From the NCBI GenBank assembly GCA_965223425.1, contig OZ245003.1, forward strand, positions 1,248,001-1,312,000: a stretch of DNA of 64,000 nucleotides, given 5' to 3'. The position numbers and the translations under genes were made by a program. Of the stretch, positions 22,781 through 58,128 are shown piece by piece. Position 1 is the first letter of the stretch, and each line of letters starts with the position of its first letter. The notes beneath the pieces were generated by a model. It was not told the origin of the DNA. It ran no database searches and worked only from the letters and a program-made list of their open reading frames with translations. Origin of the DNA: Nitrosopumilus sp. (GTDB lineage: Archaea; Thermoproteota; Nitrososphaeria; Nitrososphaerales; Nitrosopumilaceae).

Positions 22781-22872
22781 GATACAGCGTGTATCAACAA
22801 TTGGCCAAAGAATTAAAACCAACTGCAGCTCTTTTGAACATAGTTAAGATTGAGATACAACGTGTATCAATT
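22781..22872. repeat. Two palindromic GATACA-N3-TGTATC sites (third, degenerate copy at 24182-24204)
   Basis: 22781-22795 gatacaGCGtgtatc; 22854-22868 gatacaACGtgtatc; 22850-22872 matches 24182-24204 at 19/23 nt. Confidence 0.6.
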
Positions 22873-24102
22873 TTCATATGCATAACAATTCATCTCATCT
22901 ATTATGATACTCATGTCATCATGTATGATATTCATGTCCTTGATGAAAGAATTATGTATGTCAATTTGCTCGTTTAGTGATATTCGGATAACTTCTAATT
23001 CCTCATACAGTAGATTTAGAGCATTCCAGTACTGCGTACTTTGATTTGGAATATCATCATATTTTTCATATTCATCAACTAATTCATCATACTGTAATTG
23101 GACTGTCTGTATTTCTATATCACTGTGATCAGCAAAAATTTGTAACTCATCGTATTGTCTTTGTAACTCATCGTATTGTCTTTCTAATTCATCATACCCA
23201 ACAAACGATCCATCAAGTGAGGCAGGTACTATGTATTTCATAGATTCAAAATTATCTACGATTGGCGGGTTTGTCCCATACATTAAATGAGACTCGTCTA
23301 ATATGTGGTCAAAACCAAGAATATGCCCTATTTCATGTGAAACAGTATCCGAAATTCTATCTATGTTATACTGTACAAAATTATTTTTACAATCAAAAGC
23401 ACCCAACACAATAAAAATATCCCCCTTGCCATCAAAGCCATGAGTTTCTGCAAAGCCTACATAATCTCCGTCAAAATGGCTGCTATCTGCTATCACGTGC
23501 CAATGAATTAATAAATCTGCATTATTTTCAACTTGAATAAATTTTAAATCAGGATTAGACTCTTGCCATGCACTTATTCCTTTATACATTCCATGTTTGA
23601 CTATTTCTTGATTTGATACACTAGGTATCATATCATAAGAATATGTTATCTCTTGATTTGATACACTAGGTATCATATCATAAGAATATGTTATCTCTTG
23701 ATTTGATACACTAGGTATCATATCATAAGAATATGTTATCTCTTGATTTGATACACTAGGTATCATATCATAAGAATATGTTGTTTCTATTTCGTACTCC
23801 TCTGGTACGTATTTTTGTGATCCTGACTGTCTGACTGTTGTACTGTAAAAATTATCAGGCACTACAAAGCCTTCTGGTACGTATTTTTGTGATCCTGGCT
23901 GTTTGACATCATCTGAAAAAGATTGAACTTTCAGTATGCCATTATCAATTAACCATTCAATCACCATTCTGAAATCATCACTCCATAAACCAACAGTCGT
24001 CTTAACCCAATCTGGGATTAATTCATCTTGAGCGTTGACTGGAGTTACTACGATACTAGCCAAGAAGACTGCTAGAACAGAAAACAAGTAAACCAGATTC
24101 AA
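22867..24102 (-). CDS. Secreted matrixin (M10-like) zinc metalloprotease with internal repeats
   Basis: Signal peptide, IPDWVK..GLW thaumarchaeal surface domain, HEIGHILGFDH plus Met-turn LMY, C-terminal coiled coil. Confidence 0.9.
   Translation of the reverse strand: MNLVYLFSVLAVFLASIVVTPVNAQDELIPDWVKTTVGLWSDDFRMVIEWLIDNGILKVQSFSDDVKQPGSQKYVPEGFVVPDNFYSTTVRQSGSQKYVPEEYEIETTYSYDMIPSVSNQEITYSYDMIPSVSNQEITYSYDMIPSVSNQEITYSYDMIPSVSNQEIVKHGMYKGISAWQESNPDLKFIQVENNADLLIHWHVIADSSHFDGDYVGFAETHGFDGKGDIFIVLGAFDCKNNFVQYNIDRISDTVSHEIGHILGFDHILDESHLMYGTNPPIVDNFESMKYIVPASLDGSFVGYDELERQYDELQRQYDELQIFADHSDIEIQTVQLQYDELVDEYEKYDDIPNQSTQYWNALNLLYEELEVIRISLNEQIDIHNSFIKDMNIIHDDMSIIIDEMNCYAYEN
23606..23782. repeat. 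45-bp tandem repeat x4 (TYSYDMIPSVSNQEI)
   Basis: Identical unit tcttgatttgatacactaggtatcatatcataagaatatgttatc. Confidence 0.95.
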
Positions 24103-24277
24103 TAATCTTAGACTAGAACACTAGTGTATATACAATACCGTTAATTGATCTAGTGTAGGTCTACAGGCGCTATGGTCAACGTTGAGATACAGTGTGTGTT
24201 AATTCCCATGTGCAAGTCTACAGGAGCAGATCCAGTAGTAGTAGAGTCATGGAAGAAGAGGTTGGCGAATTAAAATA

Positions 24278-46724: not shown

Positions 46725-47948
46725 TCATTTCTTTTTTCTAATTTGCTGTACTACCATTGGTAAAAATGCACCCACATCAGATACAATTCCTAGTGCTTGC
46801 CATGTTCCTCTGTCCATAAGTTTTGTAACCGTTGGCTGATTAATGTCTACAGCAATCACTTTCACATTTGCTGGAAGCATATTTCCTGTTGCAATGGAAT
46901 GGAGCATAGTTGAAATCATGATGACCATATTTGCATCTTTTAGTACTTTCTTGTATTCACGTTGCGCTTGAACAACATCGGTAATTACGTCTGGCAATGG
47001 TCCGTCATCTCGAATTGAACCTGCCAACACAAATGGTATCTCGTTTTTTACACATTCGTACATTATTCCTTTTGTCAATTTCTTAGTTTTTACCATGTTG
47101 GCAATAGATCCTGCCTTGAATACTGCATTGACTGTATCCATGTGGTTTCGATGTCCATGATATGCCAATGTGGCATCATGAACATTCATTCCTAGTGAGG
47201 TACCGAGTGTGGCATATTCTATATCGTGAACTGCAAGCGCATTACCTGCCAACACCCCATGAACATAACCCAACTTGATTAGCTCAGATACAGCATCATC
47301 TGCTCCTGTGTGTACTATTGCTGGACCTCCAACAATTACAATTTTTCCACCATTCTTTTTTGTGTTATAGATGTCTTCTGCTACTTTTTTGGCAATATGC
47401 TGGGTTGGTCTTTCACTTGAGCTTGAACTTCCCATGAATTCAAACACATTGACCCCTTCTCGTGGACGCTCAGGTGGAATAATCTTGACTCCTTTTTCTC
47501 CCACTACTATTTGGTCTCCTCTTTTCACATCCCTTACAGGCACACAGAATGCTTTACTTCCCTTTACAACTATACATTTGTCCATCATCATATTTTCCAC
47601 CTGAACCCACTTTCCTCTGTGAAAAACTTGTGTGTGGTTGTTTGTTGTACTGTAAAAATTATCAGGCATTACAAAGTTTTTTATGGATTTTTTTAATACA
47701 ACCTCTTTTTGGATTTTAGATACTGCCCCTTCTCGATAAATTGTTTCAAGAATCTCATCCAGATGTTTTTGGTTTTTTCCATTAACAAGCAATCTTGCGT
47801 AGGATTGATCTTTTTTTCTTCTGCCAATGTTGATTTCTTGTACCTGAAATTCTCCTTTTAGATCCATTATTTTATCAAAGATCTTAGTCAAAATCAAAGA
47901 ATCAATTATGTGGCCACTAACTTCGATCTCTTGAGAATATTTGATCAT
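46725..47948 (-). CDS. TIGR00300 / LOR-SDH family protein (ornithine cyclodeaminase-like)
   Basis: GHIIDS, PDNFYSTTN, GNALAVHDIE, LAGSIRDDGPLPD, LHSIATGNMLP. Confidence 0.9.
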   Translation of the reverse strand: MIKYSQEIEVSGHIIDSLILTKIFDKIMDLKGEFQVQEINIGRRKKDQSYARLLVNGKNQKHLDEILETIYREGAVSKIQKEVVLKKSIKNFVMPDNFYSTTNNHTQVFHRGKWVQVENMMMDKCIVVKGSKAFCVPVRDVKRGDQIVVGEKGVKIIPPERPREGVNVFEFMGSSSSSERPTQHIAKKVAEDIYNTKKNGGKIVIVGGPAIVHTGADDAVSELIKLGYVHGVLAGNALAVHDIEYATLGTSLGMNVHDATLAYHGHRNHMDTVNAVFKAGSIANMVKTKKLTKGIMYECVKNEIPFVLAGSIRDDGPLPDVITDVVQAQREYKKVLKDANMVIMISTMLHSIATGNMLPANVKVIAVDINQPTVTKLMDRGTWQALGIVSDVGAFLPMVVQQIRKKK

Positions 47949-50802: not shown

Positions 50803-50911
50803 GTGGACAAGGCGTTCAGATTCGCAGCTGTAAGATCGTGTGAATTTCTGACATCAATGCAAATAGAGGAAAACAGGTGGACAAGGCGTTCAGATTCGCA
50901 GCTGTAAGATC
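50803..50911. repeat. Repeat-spacer-repeat unit (35-bp perfect repeats, 39-bp spacer); CRISPR-like, orphan
   Basis: gtggacaaggcgttcagattcgcagctgtaagatc at 50803-50837 and 50877-50911. Confidence 0.85.
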
Positions 50912-52725: not shown

Positions 52726-53364
52726 CTAATTCACAATAATTTTTCGCATAGGAACAGAGCCAAAATCATTTAGTTTTCTATCCTTTCCCTTATGTTTGAC
52801 TTTACGGTAATTAATTTTCTTGTCATCAAACAACCAGTTTTGAACTGCAACATATGCATTTTCTTCAAACAGTATGCAATCTTCCTTGGCATATTTTGAC
52901 ATTCTAGTACATAGATTCACTGGAATGCCATAAACATCGTCTTCAGTGTTTGTTCTAATCTTCCAAAGTGTTCCAGATGCAATAGTAACCTTTGTTCGTA
53001 TTCCATCCCCGTGTTTTTTCAGATTTCTTATTACTTTGATTGCACATTCACATGCAAGTCCTGATCCTTTGAATGTGACCAATATTGCATCTCCAAGTTC
53101 TTTGATAGCAATTCCATTGTTTCTTTCTACAATATTACGGCAGATTTTGTTATGCAATAGCATTTTAGTTATTGCCGCAATAGGATCACACCTCATCAAT
53201 TTTGTTGATCCTTTTAAATCAAAATGAGCTACGCTGAAAGTCTTTCTTTGTTTCTTAGAAAATTTCTTCTTGGTTTTAAGATTAGCAACAAATTTTTTTG
53301 CCTTAACAATTTCATCTTTGCAAGTACAACTACTAGAACAAGTACATTTCTTTTTGGATTGCAT
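52726..53364 (-). CDS. Class III adenylate/guanylate cyclase domain protein with a Cys-rich basic N-terminus
   Basis: HFDLKGST, IKELGDAILVTF, DVYGIPVNLCTRM; N-terminal CTCSSSCTC. Confidence 0.88.
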   Translation of the reverse strand: MQSKKKCTCSSSCTCKDEIVKAKKFVANLKTKKKFSKKQRKTFSVAHFDLKGSTKLMRCDPIAAITKMLLHNKICRNIVERNNGIAIKELGDAILVTFKGSGLACECAIKVIRNLKKHGDGIRTKVTIASGTLWKIRTNTEDDVYGIPVNLCTRMSKYAKEDCILFEENAYVAVQNWLFDDKKINYRKVKHKGKDRKLNDFGSVPMRKIIVN

Positions 53365-53368
53365 TTCT

Positions 53369-53656
53369 TTATGCTGACTTTGGTAAGAGATCTATTTGAA
53401 CTCCAAGAGGAGTTTTTAATTTGACTAAATTTTTTATATTTGCAAGATCTCCTTGAATGGCAAGAGAGTACACTTTAAGATCTTTATTATCACAACCACG
53501 TAGATCTGGTTGGTGATTAATTAGACCCTTTTCTTTTATTGGAGTGCCATCAATAATAATATCAAAATTAGAAGAACATTTCCTAATTTTGTTTACAGCA
53601 ATTTTAACATTAGATTCATTATAACCAGTAAATGCTAATTGAATTTGTTTTTGCAT
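53369..53656 (-). CDS. Small protein resembling a divergent ribosomal protein uS10 fold
   Basis: MQKQIQLAFTGYNESNVKIAVNKIRKCSSNFDIIIDGTPI...LANIKNLVKLKTPLGVQIDLL; TTTAAA box about 30 bp upstream; 4 bp gap before the cyclase. Confidence 0.55.
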   Translation of the reverse strand: MQKQIQLAFTGYNESNVKIAVNKIRKCSSNFDIIIDGTPIKEKGLINHQPDLRGCDNKDLKVYSLAIQGDLANIKNLVKLKTPLGVQIDLLPKSA

Positions 53657-53803
53657 TGTATCTTTCACACTTTTATTTTTGATATGTTTAAAGGTAACTA
53701 TTTGGATTTGTGGAGTTGTGTGGGATTTATTTGTAACAATTCGGATTTCTGGAGTGAATTTTGGGGTGCCGAAAGAGATAAAGATCACGGCTAGAACACA
53801 CAT

Positions 53804-55294
53804 GTGATGCCGGCGGAGTTTGATCCTACCCGCGTAGACTGGGACAACCAAGACACAAACTATCTCTTTAAGCATTTCAAATCAGTGTTTGATCAGGAGA
53901 GAAGAGAGAGAAGGTCGTTGGAAGAAAAAGTCAAGCATCAAGGCGACACAATCAAGCAGCAAAATGACACAATCAGGCAGCTGGAAGAAGAGAACAGGCA
54001 GCTAAGGACAGGATCCACAACCCAAAAGCCGGCCAGGAAGGCAAGAAGCTACAATGTGAGAAAATTCAAGGAATATCCGCGGCCAAAAAGCGACAAAAAT
54101 ACCGGGATGCGCGGCAGGGAACAGAAGACTGACATCCCAGTCACAGACCACAGGGACGCAGACATTTCATATTGTCCCGGATGCGGTCTCAGACTTGCAG
54201 ACAGCAGTGGTACCTATTACGACCGCGACATAACAGACATACAGGACGGCAGGGCGCGCCGCATCAGATGGAGCGTGGCGCGCCGCTACTGCAGGAACTG
54301 TAAAACGTCACACTCCGCACGCATACCCGGCACCCTGTCCGGCTCTCAGTATGGAATCACGATAATCTCCCAGGTAGTGCTGATGCGCTGCATGGGAATA
54401 CCGTTTGAAAAGATAACCGACCTATTTGACATGATACACGGGATACAAATCCCGGGTTCAACGCTGGTCTCCATGTGCGAAAAGGCGGCATGCCAGATGA
54501 GGCCAGTCTACGACGGACTGCTTGCAGGGATGATTCACAGGGCCCGTGCCATATGCGGGGACGAGACCGGATGGTTTCTCAACGGACTGCATTACTGGGT
54601 ATGGGTTCTAGTCTCCGCACACGGCGTGATATACCACATATCATCGACGCGCAGCAAGCAGGTGGCAGAGGCACTGGCAGGTGAGTTTGACGGAACTGTA
54701 GTATCAGACTCGTATCTGGCATGGAGTGACGTAGGCCTGCTGCACCAAAAGTGCCTGCTGCACTATTTCAGGGACATGTACAAGACCCTGGAGGAGAACG
54801 GCAGTAACGAGTTTGCCACATTCTTCAGGAGACTGCACGGCATACTCAGGAATGCCATAGACGCACGGGAAAAGTACGACAGTAATGCGGTTCCAGCAGA
54901 CGTCACACAAAGGCTGCAGGACAGGATAGACGCGCTGGCACGGCAGTCATACGACGATGCGGACTGCCGGAGGTACGCAAAAAGGCTCAAAAGGGAGGGG
55001 GATCAGCTGCTGACGTTTCTGGAGCGCGACGTGGAATACCACAACAACAAAAGCGAGAGGGCCCTGAGGATGTTTGCCACCATGCGCAAGGCCAGCTACG
55101 GCAACAGGTCCGAGAAGGGCATATACATCACAGAGACGCTGGCAAGCATATACGCCACATGCAGGATGCGCGGTGCAAACCCGTACAATTTTATCCTGGA
55201 ATACCTTGAGGGCGGCGGCAGCAGCAGAACCGACGGGATTCCCATGGCCTGTCCGGACAAAACTGCGGCAGTCAAAAAGTGTGTCTGTGCCTAA
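53804..55294 (+). CDS. IS66-family transposase (intact)
   Basis: Coiled coil, CPGCG..CRNC, GDETGW, VSDSY, HQKCLLH, HNNKSERALR. Confidence 0.95.
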   Translation: MMPAEFDPTRVDWDNQDTNYLFKHFKSVFDQERRERRSLEEKVKHQGDTIKQQNDTIRQLEEENRQLRTGSTTQKPARKARSYNVRKFKEYPRPKSDKNTGMRGREQKTDIPVTDHRDADISYCPGCGLRLADSSGTYYDRDITDIQDGRARRIRWSVARRYCRNCKTSHSARIPGTLSGSQYGITIISQVVLMRCMGIPFEKITDLFDMIHGIQIPGSTLVSMCEKAACQMRPVYDGLLAGMIHRARAICGDETGWFLNGLHYWVWVLVSAHGVIYHISSTRSKQVAEALAGEFDGTVVSDSYLAWSDVGLLHQKCLLHYFRDMYKTLEENGSNEFATFFRRLHGILRNAIDAREKYDSNAVPADVTQRLQDRIDALARQSYDDADCRRYAKRLKREGDQLLTFLERDVEYHNNKSERALRMFATMRKASYGNRSEKGIYITETLASIYATCRMRGANPYNFILEYLEGGGSSRTDGIPMACPDKTAAVKKCVCA

Positions 55295-55384
55295 AACGCC
55301 GCAACATCGCGCACACATGTATGGGGCTGAGCGGCGTTTTTGCCGATTTTGAACTGTCACGGTATAACGGGGCGTGATTTGTCT

Positions 55385-55494
55385 GTCAAAATAAATCCCA
55401 CACAACTCCACAAATCCGAATTAACGTTCTTGTCCTTTCTGACCTCTTTGCCACATGGTCAAAATAAATCCCACACAACTCCACAAATCCGAAT
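55385..55494. repeat. Repeat-spacer-repeat (37-bp perfect repeats, 36-bp spacer) in the IS66 right end
   Basis: gtcaaaataaatcccacacaactccacaaatccgaat at 55385-55421 and 55458-55494. Confidence 0.9.
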
Positions 55495-55616
55495 AGTTAC
55501 ATTTATTTTGACAGACAAATCACGCCCCGTTATATCGTGACAGTTCAAAATCGGCAAAAACGCCATCCAGCCCCATACCATGTGTTGATGTTGCGGCGTT
55601 TTAAGCACAGACACAT

Positions 55617-57226
55617 TAGACATTATGCACAATTAACATTATAAAATTTTTTGGCATTTCAGAACAAAATAGACATTAGACTTTATGAACAATTGAATCG
55701 TCAAAATTTTTCCGAAAGATTTAGATCCATTTTGATCGCCGCAACAGGTATGGAATCTCCAGAACAGACGATACGCAGACTGCAAAAAGAGCTCAAGCAG
55801 AAGGACAGAGCAATCAAGCAGAAGGACAGAGCAATCAAGCAGAAGGACAGAACAATCAAGCAGAAGGACAGAACAATCAGCAAGCACAACAAGATCATCG
55901 GCTCACTTCGCGAGCAGCTAAGACTTGAAGACAGCCTGTGGAACGTAACCGGAGATGCAGACCGCTTAGAGACTGAGACGGCACTGCTGCACATCAGGGA
56001 GGTGATCCACGGCATACTGCACAACAGCGCAAAGCTTGCGGGAATTACCTCGTATGACCTTGACCAGTTTGACTACACCTGCAACGACTTTGTGGTAGAG
56101 TCAAAGAGGCACAGCAAAGACGCGCCGCTCTTTTCAGAGGACGAAACACCGGATCCAGGAAACCGCTGCCTGCCTGGCCGCAGGTCCGTCCTGCTGCTTG
56201 CGCTGTTCCGCAGGCGCTCAAACGTGACACAGGACGCCCTGGGAGTGCTGTTTGATGTTGACCAGTCCACCGTGTGCAGGTACCTCAAGTTTGCAGATTC
56301 CGTGCTGGCAGGGATCCTGCCTACTGCAGACAGGATGACCCGTCTGGTAAAAAAGGCCGAGACATCAGAGCAGCTAGAGCAGCTAATGCCGGACAGAACC
56401 ATCATAATTGACGGCACCGAGGCGGTGCCAAGGCAGCGTCCGCAGGACAGGGATAAAAGAAAAGACACGTACTCTGGCAAAAAGAAGCGCTTTACGATTA
56501 ACACCACCATAACAACAAACAGGGCAGGGCCTGATACCTGCAGCAGGCAGGTCCTTTGAGGGCGGGACGCACGACCTTACCATGATAAGAGAGGATCCGA
56601 TAGACTTTGGCAAGTGGTCTGAATCCATGATGTACAAAAAAGACACCCCGGAAAAGGACAGGATACGGGTACTTGTAGACAAGGGATACCAGGGATGCCA
56701 ATCACTACGCGGGAATAGCACTTGAGATGCCGGAAAAAAAGAAGCCACGGGCGGAGCTGACACAGCAACAAAAGGACTCCAACAAAAGGATCAGTGCCAA
56801 GAGGGTAAAGGTGGAGCACTCCATTGGAAGAATAAAGCAGTGGGCAAGGATGACAGACCCGTACGACGGCACGGTAGAGGAGTTTCACGAGGAGCTGGTT
56901 GTGTGTACCGGCCTTGCGAACTTTGGTTTGCTGTGGGATGCAAAAAGAAAGCGGCCGTCACTTGATTGTTGATGTATGATACGGGGTGCATGATGCACTG
57001 GAATGGTGCGCACACGTGCGCTTGAATTCTCCCGGATCTGTTGAGTGATCGTATATTTTGTGCCAGACGGGGTTATTTTTTGGACCTGTCTTTGCATCTT
57101 GATGGCTTGCGCCGTAGAAAAAAAAATTTGACGTCATTTACAGAGGGGCTGATAGCAGAGGGAGAAAATCCCGATGGCTTGCGCCGTAGAAAAAAAATTT
57201 GACTGGTCAATTATGCATAATGTCTA
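55617..57226 (+). mobile_element. IS5-family ISL2-like (HTH_Tnp_4/DDE_Tnp_4) element with a frameshifted transposase (55750..56972)
   Basis: 21-bp imperfect TIR tagacattatgca(c/t)aatt(a/g)ac; FDVDQSTVCR, IIDGTE, YSGKKK, DKGYQG, RVKVEHSIGRIK; 21-bp tandem repeat (IKQKDR) at 55793-55879. Confidence 0.88.
57101..57203. repeat. Repeat-spacer-repeat (32/31-bp repeats, 40-bp spacer) just inside the IS5 right TIR
   Basis: gatggcttgcgccgtag(a9/a8)tttgac at 57101-57132 and 57173-57203. Confidence 0.88.
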
Positions 57227-57338
57227 GTATGTCATGATTTGACATACTGGACTAAATGATCGCAATTAGGCTTATTTTATAAAAAAATCATTCTACATAA
57301 TCTTTAAAAGTTACCATGACTTTTGATTTTCGACATTC

Positions 57339-57644
57339 ATGGCTAGAAAAAAAGCTGGAAAAAAGGTTGTAAAAAAGACTGGAAAAAAGGTTGTAAAAAA
57401 GACTGTAAAAAAAGCTGGAAAAAAGGTTGTAAAAAAATCACCTACAAAGAAAACGACAGATAAAACAACAAAGAGTAAAACCGCCAAATCAAAAAAGACA
57501 AAAAATAAAAAAATAAAGGATGAGCCCTTTGATGACATGAGTATTGTTATAGTCGATGATGATATTGAAATTGACCAAGAAAAGGTTAACGAAGAAAGAA
57601 GGGCATACCTAGAAGAAGCAAGATCTCAAGAGGCATCTGACTAA
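57339..57644 (+). CDS. Lys-rich histone-H1-like low-complexity protein with an acidic tail
   Basis: KK(A/T)GKKVVKK repeats followed by an acidic C-terminus. Confidence 0.75.
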   Translation: MARKKAGKKVVKKTGKKVVKKTVKKAGKKVVKKSPTKKTTDKTTKSKTAKSKKTKNKKIKDEPFDDMSIVIVDDDIEIDQEKVNEERRAYLEEARSQEASD

Positions 57645-57676
57645 ATCTTTATCAAATCCGACTACATACACTACTC

Positions 57677-57916
57677 ATGCGTGCATTATGTTTAATCATG
57701 GTAAAACCGGGAAAGATTGATTCTGTTGTTCAAATTTTAAAGAAAAAGCGTAAGGTCATAAAACAGATAATGGTAGTCACAGGAAGAGCAGACATTAGTG
57801 TAATTTTACAAGGAAATATTGACGAGCTTAACAATATGGTGATTGATTTTAAAAAAATAAAAGATATTGTTGCTACTGAAACACTAATTGAAGTAGAGGT
57901 GAATCTGGGTTGGTAA
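57677..57916 (+). CDS. Lrp/AsnC ligand-binding-domain protein
   Basis: MRALCLIMVKPGK...VTGRADI...IVATETLI. Confidence 0.85.
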   Translation: MRALCLIMVKPGKIDSVVQILKKKRKVIKQIMVVTGRADISVILQGNIDELNNMVIDFKKIKDIVATETLIEVEVNLGW

Positions 57917-58128
57917 GGGCCATAATTTTGGTAAAATCTCCAAAAAAACTCATAGCTGCACGGCTTCGGAGAATTACGTCGATCTCAGATTCCTTTCCAA
58001 CAAGTGGGCAATTTGATGCAGTTGCAATAGTTGATGTTGAACAATTGGTTCAAATTAAAGAAATTGCCAATCAAATCCAAAAAATTAATGGCGTGGAAAG
58101 GACTGAAACTATGATTGAAGTTCAATGA
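57910..58128 (+). CDS. Lrp/AsnC ligand-binding-domain protein
   Basis: TSGQFDAVA...INGVERTETMI. Confidence 0.85.
   Translation: MVRAIILVKSPKKLIAARLRRITSISDSFPTSGQFDAVAIVDVEQLVQIKEIANQIQKINGVERTETMIEVQ

Follow-up and report, generated by a model that had tools for sequence, protein, structure and literature searches.

A probable scar of off-target spacer integration in an archaeal IS66 end, and a genome-wide family of similar units

Off-target spacer integration has been proposed as a birth route of new CRISPR arrays, and CRISPR repeats themselves have been proposed to derive from the target duplications or terminal repeats of casposons, whose target duplication measures ~14-15 bp. In work by Nivala, Shipman and Church (Nat Microbiol 2018), non-canonical integration by the Cas1-Cas2 of E. 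coli type I-E reportedly gave rise to 'neo-CRISPR' loci. Insertion sequences of the IS66 family, as described in ISfinder, have ends of the form GTAA...TTAC and produce an 8-bp target duplication. According to the published reports, most of the documentation of off-target integration comes from E. coli cells over-producing Cas1-Cas2 and from in vitro work (10.1101/148544, PMC7054753, PMC6698737, PMC6546382), and the evidence for it in nature is circumstantial and comes from two other species only (10.1101/148544). For Pyrococcus furiosus Cas1-Cas2, off-target insertion has been described in vitro at non-CRISPR, repeat-like sites, with a role for the first base of the repeat, G, at the leader-repeat junction (PMC6698737). 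In our literature search we found no natural genome reported to have many off-target spacer integrations.

The window analysed here, a stretch of 64,000 nucleotides from a Nitrosopumilus sp. genome, contains an intact IS66 element with 73 extra bp in its right end (Table 1). These 73 bp very probably stem from the off-target (ectopic) integration of a spacer by the host type I-B Cas1-Cas2 with Cas4, and would be a natural 'neo-CRISPR' unit: a repeat-length duplication encloses a spacer-length insert at a junction-like site, the empty site is found in other copies of the element, and the genome carries the adaptation genes.

Table 1. Positions of the IS66 element, its repeat-insert-repeat unit, the sibling end and similar units in the window
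Feature	Position	Strand	Remark
IS66-family insertion sequence	53733..55500	+	1768 bp including the 73-bp extra unit; ends GTAAC...GTTAC
8-bp target duplication ATTTATTT, left copy	53725..53732	.	identical 8 bases at 55501-55508
8-bp target duplication ATTTATTT, right copy	55501..55508	.	from sequence and sibling alignment
Transposase gene, 496 aa	53804..55294	+	Pfam DDE_Tnp_IS66 (PF03050), E = 1.4e-31, residues 181-439
10-bp hairpin AAAACGCCGC ... GCGGCGTTTT, then T-run	55293..55340	+	directly after the transposase stop
CT dinucleotide before the duplication	55383..55384	+	same two bases precede the outermost A1 repeat
Neo-repeat 1 (37-nt duplication, first copy)	55385..55421	+	100% identity to second copy
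Insert, 36 nt, spacer length	55422..55457	+	unique in the genome
Neo-repeat 2 (37-nt duplication, second copy)	55458..55494	+	with 55495-55500, the canonical IS66 end
Inverted truncated sibling IS66 right end, inner part	55509..55616	-	single 37-mer, no insert
Same sibling right end, outer part (terminal 39 bp)	53694..53732	-	split off by the intact IS66 insertion
IS5-like neighbour element	55610-57233		Pfam HTH_Tnp_4 and DDE_Tnp_4 on its ORFs
Unit near right end of IS5-like element	57096..57200	+	33-36-nt duplication, 30/33 identical; older
Unit, exact 35-nt duplication, 39-nt insert	50803..50911	+	from window direct repeats
Unit, 37-nt duplication, 35-nt insert, period 72	23799..23907	-	in frame in a 417-aa matrixin-like ORF

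The element was assigned to the IS66 family by its IS66-family DDE transposase, its inverted repeats beginning with GTAA (53733-53755 and 55478-55500, from a repeat search of the window) and its 8-bp target duplication. It differs from the family in having a single ORF, without the accessory tnpA and tnpB, and in the 73-bp unit, which is not a family feature and which none of the 8 other right ends carries. Contig C1 carries six other full-length copies at ~96% identity and one interrupted copy, and the copies compared were 92-98% identical. When the two sibling parts were joined (55509-55616 to 53694-53732), they formed one IS66 right end, as judged from the inverted repeats of the window and from alignment, with an 8-bp overlap of ATTTATTT in the IS66-end alignment, and what lies between them is the intact IS66 with its 8-bp target duplication. 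The original prediction, made from the window alone, that this inverted sibling end has a lone 37-mer and no spacer was borne out by the same inverted repeats and alignment. It had also described conserved stems upstream of the unit, which was confirmed in part: the 10-bp hairpin after the transposase stop was found in all IS66 copies, with a shorter stem in the sibling, and it is the sole helix (55293-55302/55331-55340) common to the minimum-energy and centroid folds of the IS66 end. The region as a whole (55288-55500) folded no better than shuffled sequences (z = 0.28), and an Rfam scan of 53000-58000 (E up to 1) gave no family matches.

Within the right end, the 37-mer is present in exactly two copies in its direct-repeat family, with a start-to-start distance of 73 nt, and the terminal six bases AGTTAC (55495-55500) come after the second copy only; these coordinates agree with the earlier description of a repeat-spacer-repeat overlapping all but the last 6 bp of the right inverted repeat. 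Alignment of all IS66 right ends, which had been suggested as a check, placed the insert in the window copy alone (1/9 ends). The other eight of eight right ends in the genome have a single 37-mer and no insert, which indicates that the window copy gained it, and since its closest right ends (those of the sibling remnant and of the copy that terminates at C1:1757718) are also insert-free, one gain is more parsimonious than several losses. Spacer acquisition and recombinational loss had both been offered as explanations; acquisition was favoured by the eight insert-free ends, the cas module and the unit dimensions. The 36-nt insert, described earlier as not found elsewhere in the window, proved unique across the 2.64-Mb genome (no second full-length match, next best 14 nt), and was found neither in viral, metagenome and genome contig collections by exact match nor in 150 other genomes of the genus with up to 3 mismatches. 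The outermost 43 bp of the IS66 end are unaltered, so mobility is possibly retained, and the window copy may still be mobile.

It is extremely unlikely that the unit is a by-product of transposition, in which a tandem or nested IS66 end would have captured 36 nt of former flank by end-in-end insertion and subsequent deletion. The surroundings are full of nested IS fragments, and the position of the window IS66 in the end of its sibling shows that the element does insert into ends of its own kind; yet the inner 37-mer lacks the terminal AGTTAC expected of a real IS end, the IS66 duplications here are 8 bp and not 37 bp long, the genome has no second occurrence of the insert, and identical geometry is found at IS-free sites, unique genes included. 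The incomplete first copy and the unique insert also dispose of the idea, raised beforehand as a possible refutation of acquisition, that the insert is host DNA left from the flank of an earlier end-in-end insertion. The probability of an assembly artefact is, in our judgement, negligible. The unit lies in a multi-copy element, where assemblers err, but a contig from a public sequencing run (X2, Logan), possibly of the same sample as the assembly, spans 55392-55494 without differences, 18 units elsewhere are exact duplications in unique DNA, and a second genome (G087) has the same class of units. Logan contigs of two further runs (X5 and X6) had little or no cover beyond 55421.

Off-target integration by the resident system was assessed from the cas genes and arrays of the genome. 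The type I-B cas4, cas2 and cas1 genes are intact and directly adjoin array A1 (Cas1, 331 aa, E = 6.8e-64), and are followed by an ORF without Pfam match (putative cas8b), cas7, cas5, cas3 and cas6b; the Cas1 matches of the genome, at C1:1363612 and C1:1379849, both lie outside the window. Array A1 has 74 repeats of 36 nt and 73 spacers of 34-38 nt, array A2 has 36-nt repeats and 6 spacers of 35-38 nt, and the dimensions of the IS66 unit (37-bp duplication, 36-nt insert) fit these repeat and spacer lengths, the insert having no relation to the sequence that is duplicated. The IS66 site, CT/GTCAAAATAAAT (slash, junction), was compared with the junction between the A1 flank and the outermost repeat, CT/GTCTAAAAGAAAT, and over the 15-nt junction motif (CTGTCAAAATAAAT versus CTGTCTAAAAGAAAT) 13/15 positions match, with one substitution and one deletion; only 85 matches to this motif within two edits occur on C1 (both strands, outside A1). 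Which end of A1 is the leader was presumed from the way the repeat ends (ATTGAAAC). After its first ~13 nt, which it shares with the A1 repeat, the neo-repeat is related to neither resident repeat, and the ATTGAAAC/ATTGAAGC 3' end of genuine repeats is absent from it. Since the ATTGAAAC 3' handle is missing, processing into crRNA is not expected, and the IS66 unit is, to judge by its sequence, most likely inert.

The same departures from the resident repeats, past nucleotide 13 and at the 3' end, count against a functional one-spacer mini-CRISPR array serving inter-element conflict on IS66, as virus-borne mini-arrays do, and we consider such an array very unlikely. Its geometry would be correct (repeat-spacer-repeat), the unit lies downstream of the transposase gene in the same direction, and mobile elements are known to carry mini-arrays (PMC6858448); against this, the unit is present in only one of nine IS66 right ends, no target of the insert was found (exact matches in three collections; up to 3 mismatches in 150 genomes of the genus), the neo-repeat gave no match in Rfam (E up to 1), not even to a CRISPR repeat family, and 27 sister units lie in random genes and intergenic DNA. 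Two formal assignments were rejected: a functional CRISPR array, with no recognised repeat family and no mobile-element target (collections by exact match only), and a casposon, with no element-encoded Cas1 and the IS66 transposase as the only long ORF. A casposon terminal-repeat origin of CRISPR repeats, cited in the original prediction, is not needed to explain the IS66 unit.

In an off-target integration, a prespacer of ~36 nt would be captured, and one of its 3' ends would attack the top strand at CT/GTCAAAATAAAT in the IS66 right end, a target mimicking the A1 flank-repeat junction CT/GTCTAAAAGAAAT. The second 3' end would attack the bottom strand 37 bp, or one repeat-length, away, as if measured by a ruler, and gap repair would then duplicate the 37 bp on either side of the insert. 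We infer from the sequence features above that the IS66 unit was made by Cas1-Cas2 catalysis.

The acquisition reading was widened by a genome-wide search, in which the IS66 event turned out to be one of ~28 scattered chromosomal units and not special to IS66. Non-tandem direct repeats of at least 26 nt were scanned at periods of 40-140 nt outside both CRISPR arrays, and 33/85 matches fell at 71-75 nt, with 0-5 at any other period, a pile-up that excludes chance. The isolated repeat-insert-repeat units (the IS66 unit and ~27 elsewhere) are of unrelated sequence and have a period of 71-75 nt in all but one case (77 nt). Their duplications range from 33 to 39 nt and are not fixed at 36, with exact duplications of at least 34 nt in 18 units, and they lie in random genes and intergenic DNA, including sites without any IS. 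Six further units are in multi-copy DNA with empty paralogues (20, 3, 1, 1, 9 and 35, respectively), their duplicated segments measuring 36-39 bp. One unit is in frame in the gene of a 1117-aa PLD-SNF2 helicase; in the same-genus homologue, the duplicated PKPEKLGEKTLT has only one counterpart and the 13-aa insert has none. Inside the window, the unit of the IS5-like neighbour is also present in the copies at C1:252317 and C1:532092 (three copies in total) and missing from those at C1:1752828, 1966078 and 2260337. The insert of the unit at 23799 is a 33/34 copy of window positions 47643-47676; relatives' homologues of its matrixin-like ORF were 30-35% identical and gave no alignment across the insertion.

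Sites were compared with the ends of the genuine repeat, which has GT at both ends. A GT start at one end was found at 14/28 sites, versus a null of 10.4% (p = 1.7e-7). Over their first 12 nt taken together, the sites were not significantly similar to the repeat ends (p = 0.11); nothing stands out except the GT start and a few close mimics. No internal repeat motifs could be demonstrated at the unit sites. Repeated DNA held 10/30 unit copies versus 21.6% of the contig (p = 0.09), giving no evidence of IS elements as preferred targets. Ten of the 28 targets are at most 90 kb away from an array (p = 0.004; post hoc).

Inserts copying the host chromosome elsewhere accounted for 17/28, of which 15 matched over at least 28 nt at 93% identity or more. 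Among genuine spacers, self matches numbered 1/73 in A1 and 0/6 in A2 (1/79 in total), a difference that is expected if ectopic units escape autoimmune selection. Of the 13 single-locus sources, six are no more than 62 kb from an array (post hoc) and four no more than 30 kb from the sole orc1/cdc6 gene (p = 2e-4; post hoc). A search for a PAM in the flanks of the 15 mapped self sources, in both senses, gave no consistent motif, though cas4 is intact; the 5' flank of the sole self-matching genuine spacer is TAT. In the relative G087, whose Cas1 is 61% identical, ~7 isolated units were found, two of them with exact self sources, and their period (69-73) accompanies an array period of 70-75 (mode 71); the corresponding values in the window genome are 71-75 for units and 70-74 for arrays. 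A Cas1-negative relative (one genome, 0.8 of 1.36 Mb scanned) gave no clear units and one doubtful match.

These results bear on a hitherto undescribed, CRISPR-independent process that copies short stretches of genomic DNA with a long target duplication, always adding ~72 nt, which we regard as unlikely. The missing PAM at the 15 mapped sources, the predominance of self DNA among inserts, and the narrow sum of duplication and insert (71-75 nt, one 77 nt) in spite of variable 33-39-nt duplications would all suit such a process. Ambiguous boundaries would by themselves make duplication and insert length seem to compensate each other, however, and the process would have to account for unit dimensions that track the resident arrays in two genomes, the intact cas1, cas2 and cas4 adjoining an array, the GT start common to sites and repeat, the IS66 site mimicking the flank-repeat junction, the clustering of targets and sources near arrays, and the lack of a clear unit in 0.8 Mb of the Cas1-negative relative.

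Off-target integration by the host module remains our explanation of the IS66 unit. A broader proposal, to which we give slightly less credence than to its opposite, is that, in nature, this archaeal lineage's type I-B adaptation module is imprecise as a rule and has left dozens of neutral 'fossil spacers' on the chromosome. If so, units unable to guide interference would preserve the unselected output of naive adaptation, a record that genuine arrays would lose through autoimmunity, and this output would consist mostly of self DNA, preferentially from near the replication origin and the arrays. Units in transposon ends could then spread by transposition, as with the three copies of the IS5-like element's unit, providing a natural route for repeat-spacer-repeat seeds to arise and spread on transposon ends. 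The genome supplies ~28 events, along with empty sites and mapped self sources, a rule for site choice (GT start, junction mimicry) and a unit that an IS has spread. Such natural data make three things testable: the recognition preferences of an archaeal type I-B integrase, the DNA that naive adaptation samples prior to selection, and the possible role of transposon ends as seeds of new repeats. For annotation, this cautions against taking every isolated repeat-spacer-repeat unit for a functional mini-array, and a 24-25-aa insertion found in frame in a protein of such a genome may have been left by the integrase.

Among known systems, casposons are similar in that a transposon end is involved and a Cas1-family integrase makes a direct duplication, but the IS66 element has no cas1, it encodes an IS66-family DDE transposase, and the duplication is 37 bp. 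Viral and mobile-element mini-arrays share the one-spacer repeat-spacer-repeat on a mobile element; they have genuine host CRISPR repeats and target rival elements (PMC6858448, PMC11656645), whereas the 'repeat' here is IS66's own end sequence, in one IS66 copy only. The P. furiosus system is alike in its archaeal integrase and repeat-like non-CRISPR sites, and differs in using plasmid substrates and purified proteins, compared with the fixed chromosomal scars here (PMC6698737). Closest are the E. coli neo-CRISPR loci, which reportedly also have a spacer-sized insert, a repeat-length duplication and a chromosomal site outside arrays, with a site choice resembling the leader-repeat junction. 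The E. coli events came from over-produced Cas1-Cas2 of type I-E, whereas those reported here are natural and belong to an archaeal type I-B system with 36-nt repeats, number ~28 in one genome, are mostly self-derived, and include one unit that was copied by IS transposition.

The intact IS66-family element of the window has a single ORF (496 aa), which encodes a DDE_Tnp_IS66 domain (E = 1.4e-31). The element sits within the right end of a truncated sibling of opposite orientation, whose pieces (55509-55616 and 53694-53732), aligned to intact ends, share exactly the 8 target-duplication bases; an IS5-like element stands in place of the rest of the sibling. Near the right end, two copies of a 37-mer enclose 36 nt that have no second occurrence in the genome, and the normal IS66 terminus corresponds to the second 37-mer plus AGTTAC. 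The repeat-spacer-repeat of the original prediction proved correct at every coordinate, for the 37-mers, the insert, the AGTTAC end and the sibling pieces.

Other copies were located by BLAST over the whole genome: six elements are full-length (1689 nt aligned, 96.2–96.4% identity) and a seventh is interrupted. When all copies were aligned, these seven right ends and the sibling remnant were each found to have one 37-mer, then directly AGTTAC and unrelated flanks, and the two ends that resemble the window copy most, those of the sibling and of the element terminating at C1:1757718, have no insert either (C1 and C2 are contigs of the genome; the window is C1:1248001-1312000). Because both 37-mers have the window copy's own variant bases, the duplication arose within the lineage of that copy. 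Between spacer acquisition and loss by recombination, both raised at the outset, acquisition is favoured by these eight of eight ends with one 37-mer and no insert. A single gain in the window copy is the parsimonious history, and the 73-bp unit, judged by this alignment, is not an IS66 feature.

The proposal of conserved stems in this end stood in part: a hairpin just downstream of the stop codon (55293-55340) is kept in every IS66 copy and looks like a transcript-end structure, but the other stems were weak, with folding of the end region not better than shuffles (z = 0.28) and no Rfam family match. Neither analysis gave evidence of a structured RNA, or of a role of the stems in the insertion event. 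In the N-terminal part of the neighbouring IS5-like transposase, 21-nt tandem repeats (55772-55897) encode KQKDR(A/T)I heptads, and a weaker motif of this type lies within the IS66 transposase (53931-53993).

Coordinates of the IS66 element, isolated units and resident CRISPR arrays (window positions unless C1 is given)
Feature	Position	Description
IS66-family element	53733-55500	ends GTAAC...GTTAC
IS66 inverted repeats	53733-53755 and 55478-55500	
IS66 target duplication	53725-53732 and 55501-55508	8 bp, ATTTATTT
37-mer near IS66 right end	55385-55421 and 55458-55494	two copies, no mismatch
Unit	23799-23907	37-nt duplication, 35-nt insert; in frame in 417-aa matrixin-like ORF 22870-24120, minus strand
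Unit	50803-50911	exact 35-nt duplication, 39-nt insert
Older unit	57096-57200	near right end of IS5-like element 55610-57233; copies 30/33 identical
Unit	C1:105005	20 empty paralogues, segment 36 bp
Unit	C1:275652	3 empty paralogues, segment 37 bp
Unit	C1:280165	1 empty paralogue, segment 37 bp
Unit	C1:1341502	1 empty paralogue, segment 39 bp
Unit	C1:1565091	9 empty paralogues, segment 37-38 bp
Unit	C1:2466831	35 empty paralogues, segment 38 bp
Array A1	C1:1357299-1362540	74 repeats of 36 nt, 73 spacers of 34-38 nt
Array A2	C1:1682473-1682944	7 repeats of 36 nt, 6 spacers of 35-38 nt

Isolated repeat-insert-repeat units were sought genome-wide by a scan for direct repeats (≥26 nt, ≤2 mismatches per 26-nt window, periods 40–140 nt), with both arrays and short-period tandem DNA left out. 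This gave 85 matches, of which 3, 15, 6, 7 and 2 fell at periods 71, 72, 73, 74 and 75, and 0–5 at any other period. From the 36 matches at periods 69–78, six coding tandem repeats were removed (C1:1104350, 1552041, 1552053, 1552325, 1708750 and 1736864), leaving 30 unit copies that represent 28 independent events, three copies being in one IS5-like family. Eighteen units have exact duplications of 34–39 nt, and the others, with 1–4 mismatches, are presumably older. The duplicated sequences of different units are unrelated, a third repeat occurs in none, and C2 (123,097 bp, 46.9% G+C versus 41.2% for C1) contains no unit. Five units lie within 25 kb (C1:1706813-1731016), 24–48 kb from array A2, and two of these have sources in the same region (C1:1715003 and C1:1715723), which may be an integrated element or otherwise permissive island.

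For six further units, all in multi-copy DNA, there are empty paralogues, which carry the duplicated segment once with the two flanks joined across it. The older unit of the IS5-like element is common to the copies at C1:252317 and C1:532092, and three further copies (C1:1752828, 1966078 and 2260337) have the empty site; the unit seems to have spread by transposition. Where the period of a unit is a multiple of three, long open frames (260, 437, 417, 301 and 1117 codons) continue through it, which fits tolerated in-frame insertions. For the 1117-aa PLD-SNF2 helicase, to which unit C1:2401611 adds 25 in-frame codons, the best same-genus homologue (from genome G015, its N-terminal part 47% identical) shows a single counterpart of the duplicated PKPEKLGEKTLT and none of the 13-aa insert between the copies. 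The insert in the matrixin-like ORF is a 33/34 copy of window 47643-47676, 24 kb away. No source was found for the insert of the unit at 50803-50911; upstream of this unit, a degraded sequence weakly resembles, at the DNA level, the 3' region of the IS66 transposase.

Array A1 is adjoined by cas4, cas2 and cas1, followed by a 557-aa ORF (putative cas8b, no Pfam match), cas7, cas5, cas3 and cas6b, which is a type I-B layout. The A1 repeat has ATTGAAAC at its end when read on the minus strand, and by the type I-B repeat rule applied to this end the leader presumably lies on the cas4 side. Near the intact operon and among IS copies, L004 (a stretch of C1) has a second cas1 truncated to 125 aa of its C-terminal part (L004:17318-17695, C1:1379717-1380094) and a truncated extra cas6b (L004:2087-2530); both seem to be left over from a second CRISPR-cas locus or a rearranged one.

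The inserts match another place in the host chromosome in 17 of 28 events (15 over 28–37 nt at 93–100%, two weaker), several of the sources being IS copies, versus 1/73 genuine spacers in A1 and 0/6 in A2; this contrast is a prediction of off-target integration, since self spacers are purged from working arrays by autoimmunity and are harmless between unprocessable repeats. The single self-matching spacer (C1:1362329, only a few units into A1 from its cas4 side) matches C1:198216-198249 exactly (34/34), with TAT as the 5' flank of the target. Source lengths (33–39 nt) are those of genuine spacers, and no PAM emerged from the 15 mapped sources. The IS66 insert is one of the 11 without a source, none having been found in its own genome, in viral, metagenome and genome contig collections (exact match) or in 150 other genomes of the genus (≤3 mismatches).

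In E. coli, naive adaptation preferentially samples DNA near the array and replication landmarks. Here, 10 of 28 targets are no more than 90 kb from an array (14.5% expected, p = 0.004, post hoc), the IS66 unit being 54 kb from A1. Six of the 13 single-locus sources are within 62 kb of an array (post hoc), and four more (C1:141995-174134) are ≤30 kb from the only orc1/cdc6 gene (C1:149165-149425; p = 2e-4, post hoc); these clusters look like hot spots of naive adaptation, subject to the post hoc nature of the test.

At the sites themselves, a GT start on one strand was found in 14/28 (10.4% under the null, p = 1.7e-7), as at both ends of the genuine repeat. Overall similarity to the repeat ends over 12 nt was not significant (p = 0.11), with 8/12 matches reached by 4/28 sites versus 2.6% of random sites. 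One deletion and one substitution separate the IS66 site, CT followed by GTCAAAATAAAT, from the A1 flank-repeat junction, CT followed by GTCTAAAAGAAAT; a match this close occurs at no more than 85 positions of C1 (both strands, A1 excluded), IS66 right ends included. This site is the clearest case of junction likeness, and the near-match would account for the IS66 end as a target. There was no evidence of a preference for IS elements as such (10/30 unit copies in repeated DNA versus 21.6% of the contig, p = 0.09).

Cas1 was found in 23/60 other genomes of the genus, the closest proteins being 61–67% identical. The relative G087 (Cas1 61% identical; all of its 1.70 Mb covered) has an array of period 70–75 (mode 71) and about seven isolated units of period 69–73, two with exact self sources (35/35 and 34/34 nt). 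It also has an orphan two-repeat unit far from its cas genes (G087:C1:43914-44022), whose 37-nt repeat, ending in GATTGAAAC, is predicted to be a true CRISPR-type repeat different from that of the main array. As a single, partial control, 0.8 of 1.36 Mb of the Cas1-negative genome G010 was scanned and held no clear unit: its two period-72 matches proved to be tandem repeats in lysine-rich coding sequence, and a 31-nt pair with a period of 70 was doubtful.

Ectopic type I-B spacer integration at a junction-mimicking site in the IS66 end is the best, and a very probable, explanation of the unit, which in itself is probably functionless. Counted against this reading are the lack of a PAM, the variable duplication length (33–39 nt) and the missing source of the IS66 insert. 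The main rival, considered unlikely, is a process unrelated to CRISPR integration; unit dimensions, the site rule, location and the relatives all support a tie to the resident system. The mechanism inferred here is the same as in the non-canonical spacer integration ('neo-CRISPR') of the E. coli type I-E system, reportedly described by Nivala, Shipman and Church (2018). It is likewise that of off-target integration by P. furiosus Cas1-Cas2, which was observed in vitro (PMC6698737). Natural neo-CRISPR evidence is called circumstantial and limited to two other species in a citing preprint (10.1101/148544), and the full-text literature, supplements and subscription journals aside, yielded no report of many natural events per genome and none in this archaeal group. 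The IS66 unit is a well-documented natural case of an event whose kind was already known, and it is of value because this genome preserves an unusually rich set of natural traces of off-target integrase activity, to which the unit belongs.
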